Shown here: piece after piece, positions 28,245 to 36,556 of the stretch | How the letters are laid out: each line of letters starts with the position of its first letter | How positions within the stretch are numbered: position 1 is the first letter of the stretch | DNA from: Bdellovibrionales bacterium | GTDB lineage: Bacteria > Bdellovibrionota > Bdellovibrionia > Bdellovibrionales > UBA1609 | Direction: 5' to 3' | DNA: 64,000 nucleotides | Assembly: GCA_965261545.1 (NCBI GenBank) | Contig: CBDHDF010000010.1 | Span: 256,001 to 320,000 of the forward strand | Notes under the pieces: generated by a model | What the model saw: only the letters and a program-made list of their open reading frames with translations | What the model was told of the DNA's origin: nothing | Database searches by the model: none | Position numbers and translations under genes: made by a program

Positions 28245-29336
28245 GTGCAAGAAGTCAACAACACACAGATTGACGCGATGTGCCGCTGTGGATCGGGAAA
28301 ACTTCATCGGTATTGTTGCTTTAATAAGGTGATTAAGTTTCCAAGAAAGAGTCAATTTGAAGGAAATAGCTTCCATACAGTCCAGGAACTTCTTGCAATG
28401 GCCACAGAAGCTTTAAAGGAGCAAGAATTTCATTCACTTGAGGAAATCAATACCGAGCTTGCTCGCTTTTACAATAATCAAAATAATTTGCCTAAAGCAC
28501 CTTTCTTAGGGCTCACACCCGCACAAATGCATCGGATTCTCTACACTCCCTTTGATTTAAGCAATGAGATATTTCACTTTGATTATGTAAACCACCAGGC
28601 AGAGATTATCAATACTCCTCTCATCAACAGTGCTATTTATTTCTTGAATTATTTAAAAGAAGCTAAGTACTTGCGAGCCACAGCAAAGGGAAACTTGCCT
28701 ATGGTTTTTGTCAAGAGCTTTTACCAAGATCTTATTTCTAAGGACCCTGAACTTAGTCTTATTTACTCTAAATCTTTCCAAAGACGTTTTCCTTGCCGCA
28801 AAGAAGGAGATCTTTATCAATTAAAGTGCCTTAAACACTTACTACTTATGCAAGGAATCATAAAAAAAAGAGCTGGTAAATTTTCTCTCACTAAAAAGGG
28901 AGAAAAAATTATTGAAACTAACAATACCCTGAAACTTTTTGAGAACCTCGTTGAGGCTCTTTTTAATAAATTTAATTGGGGATTTCAAGATCTTTACCCA
29001 AGCTTCTCACTGATTCAATCCAGTGCTGTTTTTAATGTATACTTATTACATAAGCATGCTAATAACTGGATTTCAAAATCAGAACTCGGCGAAATCTACT
29101 TGCGAGCTTTTCCTAAATTGATTGAAGAAGCTCCTTATTCATACTTAACTCCTGAGGATGATGTCATCAATAGCTTTTCTTTTCGCTTCTTGGAAATCGT
29201 TTCTTATCCTTTGGGGTGGGTGAAAGTCGACCCCATGGAAGAGGGAATGCATCACTATAATTTCAAAGTAAGTGCCTTCTTTAAAAAGTGCTTTAAGCCC
29301 TTACAGGACTTAAACTCGCCTTCTTTGGATACATAG
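28245..29336 (+). CDS. SEC-C motif-containing hypothetical protein
   Basis: N-terminal CRCGSGKLHRYCC Zn-binding motif; AT-rich coding sequence. Confidence 0.75.
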   Translation: MQEVNNTQIDAMCRCGSGKLHRYCCFNKVIKFPRKSQFEGNSFHTVQELLAMATEALKEQEFHSLEEINTELARFYNNQNNLPKAPFLGLTPAQMHRILYTPFDLSNEIFHFDYVNHQAEIINTPLINSAIYFLNYLKEAKYLRATAKGNLPMVFVKSFYQDLISKDPELSLIYSKSFQRRFPCRKEGDLYQLKCLKHLLLMQGIIKKRAGKFSLTKKGEKIIETNNTLKLFENLVEALFNKFNWGFQDLYPSFSLIQSSAVFNVYLLHKHANNWISKSELGEIYLRAFPKLIEEAPYSYLTPEDDVINSFSFRFLEIVSYPLGWVKVDPMEEGMHHYNFKVSAFFKKCFKPLQDLNSPSLDT

Positions 29337-29690: not shown

Positions 29691-31043
29691 ATGGATCACA
29701 TGAATCAGTTATTTTCCAAGGGAGAGTTTATATTTCATCAAGGTGATGAAGGGGACTATGCCTATATTATTGAAGAGGGGAGCATTGAAATTTTCCTCGA
29801 AGAAGGGGGAGATGAAATTCCCGTGGCGAGGTTGGGAGTGGGTGAAATTTTTGGAGAAATGGTGACTCTTCATGCCCATGGTTCCAACTCCGATGGAGGA
29901 TCACTCCGTTCGGCCTCAGCTCGTGTCATGAAAGATTGTTGTTTATCTATTGTTTCTCGAAGCCAACTGCATTCTTCTTTTGAAAAAGCCGGTCCTATTT
30001 TAAAGCTTTTGGTAAATACTTTTCTTCAGAGAATGGGTGCGGGATTACAGAAAAAATCCATTGAGGAAAATCCTCACGAGAAGCTAAAAATGGCTAGCCT
30101 CGAAACTAATCTCTCCACCCCTCCCTCCAGTTGGCAAGGGCAAAATCATGAAACCTTACACCATGAAGCTTTAGGCTATGAGTATGGCTTTAGTAACAAA
30201 GGGATTATGGCAAAAATGAATTTTGAGCAAGATATTAAAGAAGCTTTTGAGAACAAAGAGTTTTTTATTCAATATCAACCCATTGTGCATATGGCATCAC
30301 GCCAGTTGGCGGGATTTGAGGCTCTCATTCGTTGGAAAAGTCCCACAAAGGGTTTGGTTCGCCCCGATTTATTTATGGCTGTGGCTGAAGAAGGAAGTCT
30401 TATGGCGCCCATAGGTCGGTGGGTGTTGCAGCAAGCTATTAAAGATTTGAAAGAAATCACGAGGACCTTGGAGTGCAAGCCCTTTATGGCCATCAATGTT
30501 TCAGGTCGGCAGATTGCGGATTCCAGCTTTTTTAAAACTCTTGAAAATGAACTTGATAAAACGGGTTGTGACCCCGCCCAAATCAAGCTCGAACTCACCG
30601 AGAGAGTTTTTGTGGAAGGAAGGGTGGCGAAGAATTGGATTCACCATTGCCAAGAAATGGGTGTGACGGTGGCCCTTGACGATTTTGGAACAGGATACTC
30701 AAGTTTAGGATCATTGAGAGAATTAAAAGTGGACAATTTTAAAATTGACCGCTCCTTTGTGAGCCATCTTATGACAGACAAGGTAAGCACGGTGATTGTT
30801 CAGGGTCTTATGAGTATTGCCCAAGGTTTGGGCATTGCCGTGGTGGCTGAAGGTATCGAAACCAGAAAGCAGGAACAAGGGCTCAATGAGATGGGTTGTT
30901 CCTATGGCCAGGGCTATATTTACTCGAAATCTCTTTCACTGGATCAAGTCATAGAGCTTTGTCAACAAAAACAAATTGACACGAAAAGCCCTTCCCCTCA
31001 AAGAATCATAGAGTTTGGTCCTCTTTCCCCAAGCTTTGTGTAG
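29691..31043 (+). CDS. cNMP-binding + EAL c-di-GMP phosphodiesterase (Bd1971-like), copy 1
   Basis: IFHQGDEGD.AYII, FGEM...RSASA; QPI, EALIR, INVS, ELTE, DDFGTGYSS, KID, AEGIE, QGY. Confidence 0.9.
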   Translation: MDHMNQLFSKGEFIFHQGDEGDYAYIIEEGSIEIFLEEGGDEIPVARLGVGEIFGEMVTLHAHGSNSDGGSLRSASARVMKDCCLSIVSRSQLHSSFEKAGPILKLLVNTFLQRMGAGLQKKSIEENPHEKLKMASLETNLSTPPSSWQGQNHETLHHEALGYEYGFSNKGIMAKMNFEQDIKEAFENKEFFIQYQPIVHMASRQLAGFEALIRWKSPTKGLVRPDLFMAVAEEGSLMAPIGRWVLQQAIKDLKEITRTLECKPFMAINVSGRQIADSSFFKTLENELDKTGCDPAQIKLELTERVFVEGRVAKNWIHHCQEMGVTVALDDFGTGYSSLGSLRELKVDNFKIDRSFVSHLMTDKVSTVIVQGLMSIAQGLGIAVVAEGIETRKQEQGLNEMGCSYGQGYIYSKSLSLDQVIELCQQKQIDTKSPSPQRIIEFGPLSPSFV

Positions 31044-31312
31044 CATCACCCAATGGCTTCATTGTGGAGGGTGCCCCCATGAGAAGTTATACATATATAT
31101 TATAATTATACTCGAAATCAAAATTGAAAGTCTAAAAGTAAATTTGATGCTAAGTATGCCATCTGGTCAGTTCAATAACGCAAATTGTTATTCTCCCAGC
31201 ATCAATTAAAGGAACCACTATGTTACATTATAGACTTATAGCAATATAAAATAATACAAATTATTTGAGAAATTTATACCCAGACCTTGGATTTATGTAT
31301 AAGATGACTGGC

Positions 31313-32629
31313 ATGAATCGATTGTTTTCTAAGGACAAATTCATATTTCATCAAGGCGACGAAGGGGACTGTGCCTATATTATTGAAAAAGGGTCTGTGG
31401 AAATTTTCCTTGAAGAGAGTGGAGTTGAAATATCTATCTCGATGTTGGGTGTGGGTGAGATCTTTGGAGAGATGGCAATTCTTGATTCCTGTGAGCGGTC
31501 AGCTTCGGCCCGAGCCCTTGAAGATTGTGATTTATTCGCTGTTTCTCGATGTCACTTATACTCTCATTTTGAAAAAGCTGATTCTACCATCCAACTTTTG
31601 ATGAAAGTCTTTCTCAGAAGACTTCGTGCAGGGCTGGAAGAAAAAGCCAGGGAAAGAAAACCCTTTCGACAATCGAACACTGAGGCAAGTCTCTCAATAA
31701 AGCCCCATCATGGGAACGGTAAGAGCCATGAAACTCATGGCAACTACGACGAGGATCAAGGGAGTTGTGAAACTCACGGGCATGAAAGTTACCAGGTTCA
31801 AGAGATCATTAATAAAATTCGTTTTGAACAAGATATTCAAGAAGCCTTTGAAAAAAAAGAGCTTTTTGTTTGCTATCAACCCATTGTGAATATGGCATCA
31901 CATCAACTGGCTGGATTTGAGGCTCTTGTGCGCTGGAAAAGTCCCACAAAAGGTTTGCCTTGTAACGATATATTTCTAGCGGTGGCCGAAGATAGAGATC
32001 TTATGAGACCCATTGGCAGATGGGTGTTGCAAAAAGCCATCAAAGACTTAGAAGAAATCAACAGGACTGTGCACTTTAAACCCTTTATGGCTATCAATAT
32101 TTCAGGTGGGCAAATCAATGACTCCCAGTTCTTTAAAACTCTTGAAGGTGGAATTGATAAGGCGGGCTGTGACCCCAGCCAAGTCAAACTCGAAATTACA
32201 GAAAAAGTTTTTGTTGAAAAAAGGGCTGCAATGAGATGGATTCGACGCTGCCAGCAAATGGGTGTGACAGTGGCTCTTGATGACTTTGGTACAGAGTATT
32301 CGAGCCTAGGAGCACTGACACAATTGAGAGTGGATAATCTTAAAATTGATAGATTCTTTGTGAGTCGTCTTCTTATGGACAGGGCAAGCACAGTGGTTGT
32401 TCAGGGGCTCATAAGTATTGCAAGGGGATTAAATATTCCCGTGGTGGCTGAAGGGGTTGAAACTAGAAAGCAGGAACAAGGGCTCAGCGAGATGGGTTGT
32501 TCTTATGGTCAGGGCTATTTTTATTCCAAACCTCTTTCTTTAGAACTGGCTCTCGATCTTTGCCAGCAGAATTCAACGGCCATCCAACACTCTTCCCTTC
32601 AAAGAACCACAGAAGCCCTACGATATTGA
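31313..32629 (+). CDS. cNMP-binding + EAL protein (Bd1971-like), copy 2; start inferred by alignment to copy 1 (ORF open from 31265)
   Basis: Paralogue of copy 1; FGEMAILDSCERSASA; EALVR; DDFGTEYSS. Confidence 0.88.
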   Translation: MNRLFSKDKFIFHQGDEGDCAYIIEKGSVEIFLEESGVEISISMLGVGEIFGEMAILDSCERSASARALEDCDLFAVSRCHLYSHFEKADSTIQLLMKVFLRRLRAGLEEKARERKPFRQSNTEASLSIKPHHGNGKSHETHGNYDEDQGSCETHGHESYQVQEIINKIRFEQDIQEAFEKKELFVCYQPIVNMASHQLAGFEALVRWKSPTKGLPCNDIFLAVAEDRDLMRPIGRWVLQKAIKDLEEINRTVHFKPFMAINISGGQINDSQFFKTLEGGIDKAGCDPSQVKLEITEKVFVEKRAAMRWIRRCQQMGVTVALDDFGTEYSSLGALTQLRVDNLKIDRFFVSRLLMDRASTVVVQGLISIARGLNIPVVAEGVETRKQEQGLSEMGCSYGQGYFYSKPLSLELALDLCQQNSTAIQHSSLQRTTEALRY

Positions 32630-32707
32630 CCTGAATCCATTCCGTTTCCTTAAACTAAGCGTGTTCAGAAGCATATTTTGCGATGAGTTATTGTCATCCC
32701 AATACTT

Positions 32708-35700
32708 CTATTGGGCTTGTTGAGTGGGCTTGCTGGAGGGGTCCTTGTCGTACAGGGGGAGGCTTGCCACATGCAGTGTTTGGGTGGGAAAGGCGAATTC
32801 AACATCTACCCTCTTGGCAAGCTTCATGATTTCTAAAAAGATACTCTGTCTTTCTGTAAGCTCCATGCCCCAATTGGGAACTTCTAAAAAAGCGTAGAGA
32901 AGAATATTGAGGCTGGAGTCTCCGTATTCATTAAAGACAACATGGTAGATGTCCTTTCTTGTATGAGGATGCTCTTGGATGATATCCTTAATACCTTGAA
33001 TAAAGGTTTGCATTTGCTCCGGAGTGGTATCGTAGGTGAGACCTATGTGTGTTCTGATACGTCGATAGCGTCGTTGCCCCATATTATCAATATTTTTATT
33101 GGCAAGTAGAGAGTTGGGGATGCTGATGATGGAGTTATAAAAGGTTCGTATTCTTGTCGAGCGAAAACCAATCTCTTCCACCGTTCCCTCAGCATCACTG
33201 GTCACAACCCAATCCCCAATTTTGAAGGGTTGATCCATAAAAATCATGATGGAACCAAAGAGGTTGGCTGCAGTATCCTTGGCGGCGAGGGCAAAGGCAA
33301 GACCCCCAATGCCAAGTCCCGCTAAGATAGACATCACATTGAAGCCTAGGTTTTGTATGGCCATAAGGCCACCGATGAGGGCGACAAAAAATCGCATGGA
33401 TTTAGCAATGAGAGGTACTAAGTGGTCGTCTAGCTCCGACTCTGTTTTTTTAGCAAAGCGTTTAAAAAGTTCAGTAAAAATATCTGTGAGACGATAGGCC
33501 GCCCAAACCAAACTGATACTAAATGTGAATTGAATCATTATAAGTAGAAATGAGCGAAGAAGTCCGTCCAGGTTAAGATGATAAATGCAAAGAAACCATA
33601 CAGCTGTGGCCCCTAAAAGTCCTAGGGGTTTTTCTAAGGAGAGGATGAGTTTGTAACGAATAGAGTCTTCACGACGAAGAATCCACTTTTTAAAGATAAG
33701 AAAAAGAAACTCAGCGAAAGACTTTACAATAAAGCCAAGAAGAAGGGAGACAAAAAGACCCAACCACTTCCAGTTTTCAAGTCCAAGGCTTTTTTGGGTG
33801 GACCAAGAGGGGAGTTTGTCTTTCCAACCTTGGGTGAAGAGTGCCCCTTGAGTGGTTCCTTTAAGGTAGGGTAGATGTTTGATCTTATTATAAAACTCTT
33901 TGGCTCGTAGGGTGGTGTCCGTCGTAAAGAGATATTGGTGGGCATGGGGACCTTTTTCGATTTTTGCAATGGTGATTTCAGTGTCTTTGAGTCGCCACTT
34001 GGGTAACTCGGTGTTGTCGGGAATAAGGCTCAAATTGATGATGATAACACGGTCGAGAACTTCTTTGAGTAAAATAGCAGCTTGCTTTCCCTCTTGGGTT
34101 CGCGCCAAGGTGGGTAGAGAAGAGAGATCAAAGCAGCGAGTGGCATCGTTGATTCGCTGTATGAGTTGATCGTTATTTGTTTCAATACCATTCTTATAAT
34201 CATTCATGGCCTCCATATAGGACTTCATGGTATCTCGTGGGTGATCCAGGCGCACAGGTTTTAGTGGGGAGGAGGCCGATGTCGTGGTGGACATGGTGAT
34301 TGATATGAGAATTATCATAATGAGACCCGTAAGGCCCGCAACAAATGACTTGAGGGCGGGGACCATCATAATGAGGCCAGCAATGAATGACTTGAGAACG
34401 GGAATCCCTGCTTGTGCCATAATTTTTATAGCATTGGTTGTGGGGCAGGGGCCTGGATGTATCTTATAGTTAAATATCAATTGGTCCTTTTCAGCTTCGT
34501 CGCGAAAATGCCAGTTTTCCATTCTAGGTATATTTTTTTCCATTTTTGACAACTCAAGATCATGGCTACTAATAAACCCTAGGGCTTTTGGAAAACGAAC
34601 AATTTCCTGAATGACTGTTTGACTTCCCATAAGTCTTTCTTGATTATTTGTTCCATTGAAAATCTCATCAATAAAATATAGAAAGGGCTTCTGAGCTTGG
34701 GCGACTTTGAGTATATGTGAAATACGCTTCACTTCATAATAAAATTTTGAATACCCATCTTGTAGAGAATCACTGACTTTGAGGCATGAAAACATAGGAC
34801 AGCAAAAGCTCTTAAAACTCTTGGCGTAAACAGGTGCTCCTATCATTGCGAGAGTATGGTTGATGCCAATGGTACGCAAGAAGGTCGATTTGCCTGCCAT
34901 ATTTGAGCCTGTGAGAAGAACGAGTTGAGCGGTGAGAGAAAAATTATTTCTGACCACTTGATTTTTTGGGATCAAGGGGTGGTAAATGCCTTTAAAGGTA
35001 AGTTCGATTTTATCGGGGGCATGATTTTTAGAGCTATCGAGTTCATTAGAGGGAGCGAAGGTGTTCAAGGTATCAGAGGTGTTCAAGGTGTCAGAGGTGT
35101 TGAATACACGAGAGGCACCGGAAGCACCCGAAACATCGGGAAGGCAAGAGGTTTGAAAGTGAGACATAAAGCTAAGACTCATGAGGGCTTCGAACTCTCC
35201 TAGCTCTTCTAGGATAAATGGAAGCTCTTTAGACGCAGAGACTCTCCATCTTTCTACAAAGAAGGTGATAAGGTATTCCCATGGTAAAAAGAGGTTGACG
35301 GCGATATGTGCAATGGGATGGGCTTGAACACTGAGCAAAGAGATGAAAAATTGCAACTTCTTATACTTCTTTGAGAACTGGCATTGGTGTAGATTTTTAA
35401 AATGGCTTAAAAATGTTTTCTTATCTTTGAATTTGATTTCAATATGCTGAAGCAGAGGTTTGAGGGCTTGAGTTTTTTGCGCTAAATCTTGTGCATGGGT
35501 AAATCCTTCGTGGGCTTTTGGACGAAAGCCTACGATGAAGAATAAATAAAGTACTATGGGGAGCGCTGGAGGGAGTGGTAAAGTTCCAGCAAGTCCGAGG
35601 GCAACACTTACCCACATAGTGATAAGAAGAAATGACTGAACTTTGAAGTGTTTGAAAAATTCAGGGCTTACAAGGGAGCGGTCAAGGTCAAGTTTTGTGA

Positions 35701-36280
35701 TGGAAAGTTGGCTACGCTTTTCCTCTCCGAGGATTTTGAGGTAGAGAAATCGCCAAAGAAAGGGGCGCCACTGAGTCCATTTATCTTGACGAAGATGAAT
35801 AGCTTCGAGTTGGGGATCATGGAGGCTTTCAAACCACCGCAAAAGGGTAGACTCTCCATAGGGCGTAAAGCTTTCATTGACGAACTCAAAGAGGGATTTT
35901 TTTCCAAAGAGATGAAAATCTTGGGATAATATTTCTAGCTCTCCTTTTAGGAAAGGTTTTGCAGGGTTTTCATTGACAAAAAGCCCCATGGCTTTGGCTT
36001 CCTGCCTTTTAAAGAAGTCATAGAGGAAGTGAAGGTGTTGAATAAATTTCTTTAGATTTCTGTGGGCCAATATCAAGTAGAAAAAATAGATCAAATCTAT
36101 AAACCAAAGGAAAATAAAGGGGAAGGGGGAACTAACAAGGGGAATGACAATCAAGAGACCGAGTCCGAGGAGGCCACTAATTAAGCGTAGCGTCATATTT
36201 TTCTGAAGCAATTGTTGGTACTTTGCTTTTTGTTTTGTCAGTTTGTTTTGCCAATATTGCAAGCGGTTTATATGTATCAT
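32708..36280 (-). CDS. Fused ORF: membrane-anchored MutS domain V ATPase (about 36280-34397) plus MscS-family mechanosensitive channel (about 34369-32708)
   Basis: TGSNMAGKSTFLR, DSLQDG.S.FY.E, IDEIFNGTN, SSHDLEL (MutS-V); GLGIGGLAFALAAKDT.ANLFG, PFKIGDWV, GTVEEIGFRSTRIRT, FAFPTQTL (MscS). Confidence 0.85.
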   Translation of the reverse strand: MIHINRLQYWQNKLTKQKAKYQQLLQKNMTLRLISGLLGLGLLIVIPLVSSPFPFIFLWFIDLIYFFYLILAHRNLKKFIQHLHFLYDFFKRQEAKAMGLFVNENPAKPFLKGELEILSQDFHLFGKKSLFEFVNESFTPYGESTLLRWFESLHDPQLEAIHLRQDKWTQWRPFLWRFLYLKILGEEKRSQLSITKLDLDRSLVSPEFFKHFKVQSFLLITMWVSVALGLAGTLPLPPALPIVLYLFFIVGFRPKAHEGFTHAQDLAQKTQALKPLLQHIEIKFKDKKTFLSHFKNLHQCQFSKKYKKLQFFISLLSVQAHPIAHIAVNLFLPWEYLITFFVERWRVSASKELPFILEELGEFEALMSLSFMSHFQTSCLPDVSGASGASRVFNTSDTLNTSDTLNTFAPSNELDSSKNHAPDKIELTFKGIYHPLIPKNQVVRNNFSLTAQLVLLTGSNMAGKSTFLRTIGINHTLAMIGAPVYAKSFKSFCCPMFSCLKVSDSLQDGYSKFYYEVKRISHILKVAQAQKPFLYFIDEIFNGTNNQERLMGSQTVIQEIVRFPKALGFISSHDLELSKMEKNIPRMENWHFRDEAEKDQLIFNYKIHPGPCPTTNAIKIMAQAGIPVLKSFIAGLIMMVPALKSFVAGLTGLIMIILISITMSTTTSASSPLKPVRLDHPRDTMKSYMEAMNDYKNGIETNNDQLIQRINDATRCFDLSSLPTLARTQEGKQAAILLKEVLDRVIIINLSLIPDNTELPKWRLKDTEITIAKIEKGPHAHQYLFTTDTTLRAKEFYNKIKHLPYLKGTTQGALFTQGWKDKLPSWSTQKSLGLENWKWLGLFVSLLLGFIVKSFAEFLFLIFKKWILRREDSIRYKLILSLEKPLGLLGATAVWFLCIYHLNLDGLLRSFLLIMIQFTFSISLVWAAYRLTDIFTELFKRFAKKTESELDDHLVPLIAKSMRFFVALIGGLMAIQNLGFNVMSILAGLGIGGLAFALAAKDTAANLFGSIMIFMDQPFKIGDWVVTSDAEGTVEEIGFRSTRIRTFYNSIISIPNSLLANKNIDNMGQRRYRRIRTHIGLTYDTTPEQMQTFIQGIKDIIQEHPHTRKDIYHVVFNEYGDSSLNILLYAFLEVPNWGMELTERQSIFLEIMKLAKRVDVEFAFPTQTLHVASLPLYDKDPSSKPTQQAQ

Positions 36281-36375
36281 CTTTTTTAAGATCCTTGTTC
36301 TTCAAGATCCTTGGGATTCTTTGAGGCACTGTTTTTTTGCTCTAAGGGAGCGAGAGCCTAGTGACACGGTTTCTA

Positions 36376-36413
36376 TTTATCGGTTTGATGGGTTTTTATC
36401 GGTTTGATGGGTT
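36376..36413. repeat. Exact 19-bp direct tandem repeat in a divergent intergenic region
   Basis: tttatcggtttgatgggtt x2. Confidence 0.9.
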
Positions 36414-36556
36414 AAAACATTGAGACACGAAGTGACCTCGACTTTCTGTGGCTTCTGTGTGCTGTATTGTATGCTTATGCCTACTTGTTACGCAACTTTG
36501 TAAGAAAGGGGACTAAGGACTGGCCTTGCTGTCTGTTGTGTGGCAAAACAAGAGTC

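Follow-up and report, generated by a model that had tools for sequence, protein, structure and literature searches.

Membrane MutS3-like ATPase and YnaI-type MscS channel fused in frame in one Bdellovibrionales species, probably separated by signal peptidase

The DNA analysed here is a stretch of 64,000 nucleotides (nt), referred to as the window, from the genome assembly of a Bdellovibrionales bacterium (GCA_965261545.1, contig CBDHDF010000010.1, positions 256,001 to 320,000), in which the minus strand at 32708-36280 encodes a single open reading frame (ORF) of 1190 amino acids (aa) that begins with ATG and has no internal stops. The frame joins a membrane ATPase that fits the MutS3 group to a mechanosensitive channel which is, by sequence and predicted structure, a YnaI-type member of the MscS family (Table 1). 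We hold it to be probable, though well short of certain, that this is a tolerated in-frame fusion private to the species, and that signal peptidase I likely cleaves its product between Ala669 and Ser670; cleavage by this enzyme would be the reading of the link that the sequence supports best.

A preliminary description of the window, made from the letters alone, had taken the frame to be uninterrupted and had pointed to positions 34300-34430 as the place to check. Logan contigs (not raw reads) from two separately assembled runs of one sample, X1 and X2 with depths of 5.8 and 2.5, each cover the entire ORF in one piece without a stop or frameshift and agree letter for letter with the window across the junction; a third run, X3, contributed three short pieces, none of which covers it. 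The X1 and X2 contigs show 13 and 15 differing sites relative to the window, none of them in 34098-34774, and as the sole length change an in-frame 18-nt deletion of one repeat unit at 35059; they probably represent another strain. All 16 strain differences in 32660-36420 are transitions. Between the window and the second strain 10 of 14 codon changes are silent, compared with 33% expected under random transitions (P 0.004), with 6 of 8 silent in the ATPase half and 4 of 6 in the channel half. Of the conserved columns of the two halves, 72 of 79 and 132 of 140 are retained, within the range of the relatives, and each half clusters with its own family on a branch of ordinary length. The silent excess, the retained columns and the absence of a long branch indicate that both halves are under maintenance. 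It is extremely unlikely that the open junction is an assembly artefact, because the second-strain contigs are identical across it and most codon changes are silent. The source genome does contain frameshift-split genes, which are possible indel errors, and the support comes as contigs from a single sample; against this stand two separately assembled runs from a strain with 13-15 differing sites and the identical junction, as well as the repeat copies at the joint, which are just ~80% alike and would correspond to neither a collapsed nor a doubled read.

The ATPase half carries MutS domain V (Pfam MutS_V at 455-627, E 1e-28) with the Walker A sequence TGSNMAGKST at residue 457, FIDE at 536, SSHD at 571 and TTNA at 614, and the catalytic columns are all invariant across 34 homologues. 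No Pfam match to MutS_I (PF01624) or MutS_II (PF05188) occurs in the 1190-aa protein; for MutS_III (PF05192) homologues carry matches, one relative weakly, and the window protein has none above threshold. In the structural model residues 1-628 have a pLDDT of 89, with values below 50 at residues 388-422, and this half aligns to MutS 7oto over 540 columns (E 1e-15) and to MutS in general over 540-600 columns. Pfam, motifs and hydropathy agree with the preliminary description, which had recognised membrane helices and an intact domain V ATPase and no mismatch-binding domain. Assignment to MutS1, the mismatch-repair protein, was rejected on the lack of PF01624 and PF05188 and on a score of 103 bits for PRK05399, the cut-off of which is 480; a separate MutS-type frame of 890 aa is present in the source genome. 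Lin, Nei and Ma (2007; PMC2190696) describe the MutS3 subfamily as having its ATPase domain near the C-terminus, as being without domains I, II and Smr, as carrying the MutS core (MutSd) domain in some members and as co-occurring with MutS1 and MutS2, and they place MutS dimerisation in the ATPase domain. The half studied here has its ATPase domain on the C-terminal side, none of domains I, II and Smr, and a MutS core in its predicted fold, and thus fits a MutS3-like protein as assigned by domain content and fold.

In the channel half, Pfam places MscS domains at 963-1001, 1002-1067 and 1076-1162 (PF21088, PF00924 and PF21082, all above cut-off), and profile searches match YnaI with E 5e-70 (from YnaI residue 41) and MscS with 3e-37. 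The model has five membrane helices, that is, two additional ones before the three-helix core, and YnaI ranks first in a fold search with the channel. Bdellovibrionales records stand among the best named sequence matches to the channel. YnaI of E. coli is a heptamer according to PMC4559596, and each matching YnaI entry in the PDB holds seven chains. The claim of a complete MscS with a periplasmic N-domain can accordingly be kept, the N-domain as a predicted one: it matched no Pfam family, and the Atlas gave unnamed clusters only. In longer homologues (P0001-P0008) this domain is doubled in tandem.

The two halves meet where proteins of the ATPase family usually end, as had been supposed: the stand-alone ATPases terminate a few residues past G-x-P in 22 of 22 relatives, and all 80 metagenome homologues end within 16 residues of the junction position. 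What follows reads as a signal peptide, with Lys644, an 18-residue hydrophobic stretch (645-662) and the sequence T-S-A/S-S-P-L, in which Thr667-Ser-Ala669 put small residues at -3 and -1; the n-, h- and c-regions and the cut site were judged by eye and homology. Among 23 stand-alone channels the mature-start motif (x-S-P-L type) could be located in 20, all 20 of which have a hydrophobic N-terminal segment before it, and 7 of the 20 have Ala at the exact position of Ala669. The register shared with the signal and mature start of these channels supports the earlier proposal that the link is the channel family's own former signal peptide, with its cut site apparently retained, and the predicted topology (cytoplasmic ATPase, link, periplasmic domain, channel) is coherent, again as proposed.

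The degenerate direct duplication reported at 34402-34361 and 34360-34310 is likewise real and beyond chance: 34 of 42 aligned bases are identical between the copies, the second of which has a 9-nt insert, and the alignment score of 46 exceeds the shuffle maximum of 31.5 and all of 500 codon-order shuffles. The further idea that this duplication removed the stop codon does not hold. With its 42-nt period and 9-nt insert the duplication preserves the frame and deletes nothing; since it is frame-neutral, another event must have removed the ATPase stop. The channel gene, moreover, had to arrive from another locus, and the junctions of the five other fusions in the source genome have no such duplication. 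Copy 1 starts at the family-terminal P-V, which fits a duplication across a joint that was already there as well as a joining of the two genes at a short stretch of common sequence. Duplications of this kind are typical of this repeat-rich genome, which contains 1208 tandem arrays (280 per Mb, 922 of them with a period divisible by 3) compared with 52 per Mb in the relative G043; of 1000 windows drawn at random, 7 reach the score of the junction duplication, as against 0 of 1000 in G043.

To place the fusion among relatives, we used an order set of 384 genomes including the source genome and a family set of 108. The ATPase occurs in 107 of the other 383 order genomes, in none of which (0/107) it has a C-terminal partner; the four frames longer than 700 aa (in G342, G370, G357 and G366) were all read and have an ordinary C-terminus. 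One of these, a 1175-aa frame in G342, had been a candidate second fusion and was discarded because its additional length lies upstream, antisense to a release-factor-like gene, and P0005 (1044 aa) was set aside because it lacks a MutS domain and has a C-terminal tail of low complexity. Within the family the ATPase is found in 14 of 108 genomes and a channel with the window-type N-domain in 19, always with at most 659 aa; six genomes have both, never joined. Nor are the two genes adjacent but separate in relatives, as might have been expected from the preliminary description: where they share a contig they lie 846 kb (G043), 862 kb (G062), 1.18 Mb (G027) and 265 kb (G031) apart, no MutS-like gene occurs within 3 kb of the channel at 80 channel loci, and no MscS within 2.5 kb of the ATPase at 80 ATPase loci. 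Three protein searches yielded no other MutS-MscS protein. Two of them scored the top 8000 candidates each, and of these one was read as the best 120 of 2663 matches; the third, for longer proteins (7190 candidates), gave 8 matches, none with MscS, which is weak evidence. Scanning metagenomes with the junction region brought up no relative, and the exact 1190-aa protein is absent from a collection of 15 billion. The literature search, which left most subscription journals outside its reach, returned no MutS-MscS fusion, and searches on membrane MutS subfamilies, additional MscS domains, bacterial polyproteins and symbiont gene fusions turned up nothing relevant among the titles and abstracts listed. 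The statement that no such fusion is known elsewhere thus stands for the order genomes and protein searches; the repetition in independent lineages that would mark a conserved ATPase-channel system was not found, and the fusion is, as far as these comparisons reach, private to one species.

The ATPase sits at its native locus, divergent from an ABC transporter pair; at this place in relatives the ATPase gene is preceded by an HD-domain gene and often followed by a rhodanese gene. None of the channel's usual neighbour genes has a match at E 1e-15 in the source genome. Since the ATPase is at its native locus and the channel lacks its usual neighbours, the channel would be the gene that moved. 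There is no signature of a reciprocal rearrangement, the rhodanese gene of the source genome lying on contig C7 beside unrelated genes. At nine loci of family relatives (L041, L043, L045-L048, L050, L052, L057) the HD-domain gene separates the MutS-like gene from the ABC transporter; it is missing there in the source genome.

Comparison of the source genome (G000) with G043, covering 2.4 of the 3.33 Mb of the latter and 1054 frames with a match, listed 11 fusion candidates. Five were dropped, namely three antisense shadow frames, an E1 alpha-beta fusion that is common, and one case in which it is the G043 gene that is split. In the opposite direction 8 of 874 frames were listed, six of which read as splits in G000 or two-component shuffles; L106 and L064 were left out of the reading. 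Five further fusions are present in G000, four of them unfused in relatives (Table 1), and the genome seems prone to such events. The fusion of N-formylglutamate amidohydrolase (FGase) to an outer-membrane efflux protein of the TolC family repeats, as judged from its sequence, the design of cytoplasmic enzyme, signal peptide and exported protein: its link is signal-peptide-like, and its internal methionines lack Shine-Dalgarno pairing. Because a TolC-family protein has to leave the inner membrane, this product needs a cut or a start of its own. The formyltransferase gene (fmt) in another of the fusions is frameshifted near residue 99, which may reflect recoding, a pseudogene or a mistake in the assembly. 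The Pfam scan found no GTP cyclohydrolase II domain in the RibB-RibH fusion, and the DUF2064-radical SAM fusion has retained a strong ribosome-binding site before the methionine of its second part (dG -8.1).

As to how the fusion may have arisen, the channel gene would have come to lie downstream of the ATPase gene, the two frames would have been joined by a deletion or by the loss of a stop, and the 42-nt duplication would be a frame-neutral by-product of a repeat-prone genome. One chain would then be made, in which two hairpins keep the ATPase cytoplasmic; residues 645-662 would enter Sec as an internal signal, and the periplasmic domain would be exported. A cut by signal peptidase I at Ala669/Ser670 would release a channel able to assemble into heptamers and an ATPase, with one additional C-terminal helix, able to dimerise, so that the fusion would merely couple the expression of two proteins. 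Cleavage would thereby resolve the 2-versus-7 mismatch between an ATPase dimer and a channel heptamer.

Left uncut, the link would be a sixth membrane helix from which the ATPase hangs passively on the channel rim, with gating unaffected. We regard this as unlikely, though deserving of attention: the link contains a favourable 19-residue window in the longest uncharged span of the set, the model helix is continuous over residues 641-667, the topology is workable with one pass, and MscS-family channels tolerate additional N-terminal helices according to PMC4559596. It would leave unexplained the small -3 and -1 residues kept in register, seven ATPases on one channel could presumably not all dimerise, and the parallel FGase-TolC fusion would be unworkable uncut. 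Two proteins could also result if translation of the channel began mostly at an internal methionine, Met638/639 (or Met621), with a 31-32-residue signal peptide and with the read-through chain as a side product. Of the internal start suggested at Met 34369/34366, the methionines exist, directly before a complete n-, h- and c-region, and the DUF2064-radical SAM fusion illustrates a strong site before an internal methionine in the same genome; the ribosome-binding site, however, is weak, with an anti-Shine-Dalgarno pairing of -1.5 kcal/mol for Met638/639 and 0 for Met621, as against -5.0 for Met1 and a median of -7.0 over 293 training starts. A start weight matrix puts Met638/639 and Met621 in the lowest 2-8% of true starts, a weak test since it discriminates poorly and has Met1 likewise at 7%. 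As no stop codon closes the ATPase part, which would be obtainable as read-through only, an internal start seems improbable as the main source of the channel. We consider it more doubtful still, indeed very improbable, that the link escapes cleavage and that a ring of MutS3-like ATPases controls, through its nucleotide cycle, how the YnaI-type channel gates or inactivates. The intact catalytic motifs, a junction stable in two strains and a duplication that lengthens the tether are consistent with such a functional fusion, as is the coherent topology for which the preliminary description had called an ATPase-tethered channel possible; yet the pair is neither fused nor adjacent elsewhere in the 384 order genomes, 160 loci and protein searches, genomes of the family mostly carry one of the genes without the other, a homologue of the ATPase is joined to an unrelated enzyme elsewhere, and the symmetry mismatch would persist.

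Several observations weigh against a tolerated fusion that is cleaved by signal peptidase. Ahead of the mature motif lies an uncharged span of 26 residues, compared with 13-25 in relatives; it can form a full 19-residue membrane helix and suits an uncleaved anchor too. The 8 of 42 base differences between the duplication copies are all silent or conservative, so the junction has persisted for some time and may be under selection; the collection holds no same-genus relative that would date the fusion. For the channel half alone the silent excess (4/6) is not significant (P 0.10), and three of its changes rest on one contig at depth 2.5. The five other fusions are seen in the assembly only and some could be assembly errors, in a genome with several frameshift-split genes including fmt.

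Table 1. Features of the fused frame in the window and further gene fusions in the source genome (window positions unless a locus and contig are given).
Feature	Position	Strand	Basis
Fused ORF, 1190 aa	32708..36280	-	ORF call and second-strain contigs across whole length
Membrane MutS3-like half, residues 1-628; predicted fold MutS core and ATPase	34397..36280	-	Pfam, homologues, model
Predicted membrane hairpin 1, residues 28-74	36059..36199	-	hydropathy; model helices H2-48, H53-97
Predicted membrane hairpin 2, residues 212-252	35525..35647	-	hydropathy; model
18-nt tandem repeat, disordered linker; second strain one unit fewer	35047..35115	-	repeat scan, contigs
MutS domain V ATPase, residues 455-627; Walker A, Walker B, HD motif	34400..34918	-	Pfam and motifs
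Duplication copy 1, residues 627-640; opens with family-terminal P-V; contains Met638, Met639	34361..34402	-	alignment
Duplication copy 2, residues 641-657; signal n- and h-region	34310..34360	-	alignment
Internal signal-peptide-like segment, residues 641-669; predicted cut Ala669/Ser670	34274..34360	-	homology, by eye
Predicted periplasmic N-domain, residues 670 to ~835	33776..34273	-	Pfam scan, model, homologues
YnaI-type channel: five predicted membrane helices and cytoplasmic cage	32711..33775	-	Pfam, profile, model
FGase-signal-TolC, 783 aa	L182:144-2492, G000:C2:765143-767491	-	unfused in 94/94 family genomes with enzyme
LD-carboxypeptidase (S66; LdcA)-Mur ligase, 802 aa	L178:64-2469, G000:C2:820163-822568	+	unfused in 36/36 relatives with match
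Fmt-Rpe: second part of frameshift-split formyltransferase and ribulose-phosphate epimerase	L179:100-1895, G000:C2:831899-833694	-	epimerase unfused in 38/38
RibB-RibH: DHBP synthase-lumazine synthase, 429 aa	L180:78-1364, G000:C10:462677-463963	-	unfused in 33/33 relatives
DUF2064-radical SAM	L183:125-1810, G000:C10:1041724-1043409	-	Pfam; comparison with G043

Convergent with the fusion on the plus strand are two tandem paralogues with a cyclic-nucleotide-binding and an EAL domain (29691-31043 and 31265-32629), and upstream of the fusion start lies a perfect 19-nt direct repeat in two copies (36376-36413), each internally dyad-like. A 363-aa ORF at 28245-29336 on the plus strand, in a low-GC stretch, has an N-terminal metal-binding-like C-x-C...C-C motif that we take to be SEC-C-like; the ORF has no Pfam or NCBIfam match.

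If the fused product is indeed cleaved as we propose, it would be a natural case of two unrelated genes merging via a cleavable signal peptide, at low cost because this peptide lets the cell separate the products, and the source genome seems to have made a merger of enzyme, signal and exported protein at least twice. The protein would also offer a simple test case for the processing of internal signals by signal peptidase I in fused bacterial proteins. Should the link instead be uncut and the channel ATP-sensitive, this would be a new control mode for an osmotic safety valve; with a ring of ATPases regulating the channel, it would be the first mechanosensitive channel that a gene fusion has placed under the control of ATP, and it would give a first clue to the role of membrane MutS3-like ATPases.

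MscS-family channels with fused regulatory domains exist in MscK and in the cyclic-nucleotide bCNG channels, which like the window protein bear additional domains on an MscS core; theirs are conserved families, whereas the present architecture was found in one species only. The closest match to the channel half in both sequence and fold is YnaI of E. coli (PDB 6urt, 9h95; PMC4559596), with which it shares a five-helix membrane part and the cage, and from which it differs by a periplasmic domain of ~165 aa, a signal peptide and the upstream ATPase. With MutS3 proteins the ATPase half shares the domain layout without domains I, II and Smr; the window protein has membrane hairpins, whereas PMC2190696 makes no mention of membrane helices or of the word 'membrane', and the C-terminus of the window protein is lengthened by the channel. 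A parallel case outside the order occurs in Prevotellaceae, where a homologue of the ATPase continues without a break into a heparinase II/III by way of the latter's textbook-like signal peptide (P0103, P0170 and P0175, the three full-length members examined in a cluster of 34; 1228-1247 aa). There, too, a member of the same ATPase family is joined straight to the signal peptide of an exported protein, but in another phylum, with another partner and with no duplication visible in the protein, and because the same family is fused to an unrelated heparinase elsewhere, the partner looks arbitrary. FbcH of Bradyrhizobium japonicum reportedly yields cytochrome b and c1 from one gene by cleavage at an internal signal sequence, and so resembles the window protein in combining a membrane protein, an internal signal and an exported domain in one frame; FbcH joins subunits of one complex and its cleavage is said to have been shown, whereas here the partners are unrelated and the cut is predicted from sequence. 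The pairing of MutS and MscS domains thus appears to be new, and the kind of fusion, FbcH-like and split by signal peptidase, appears to be one that is known already.

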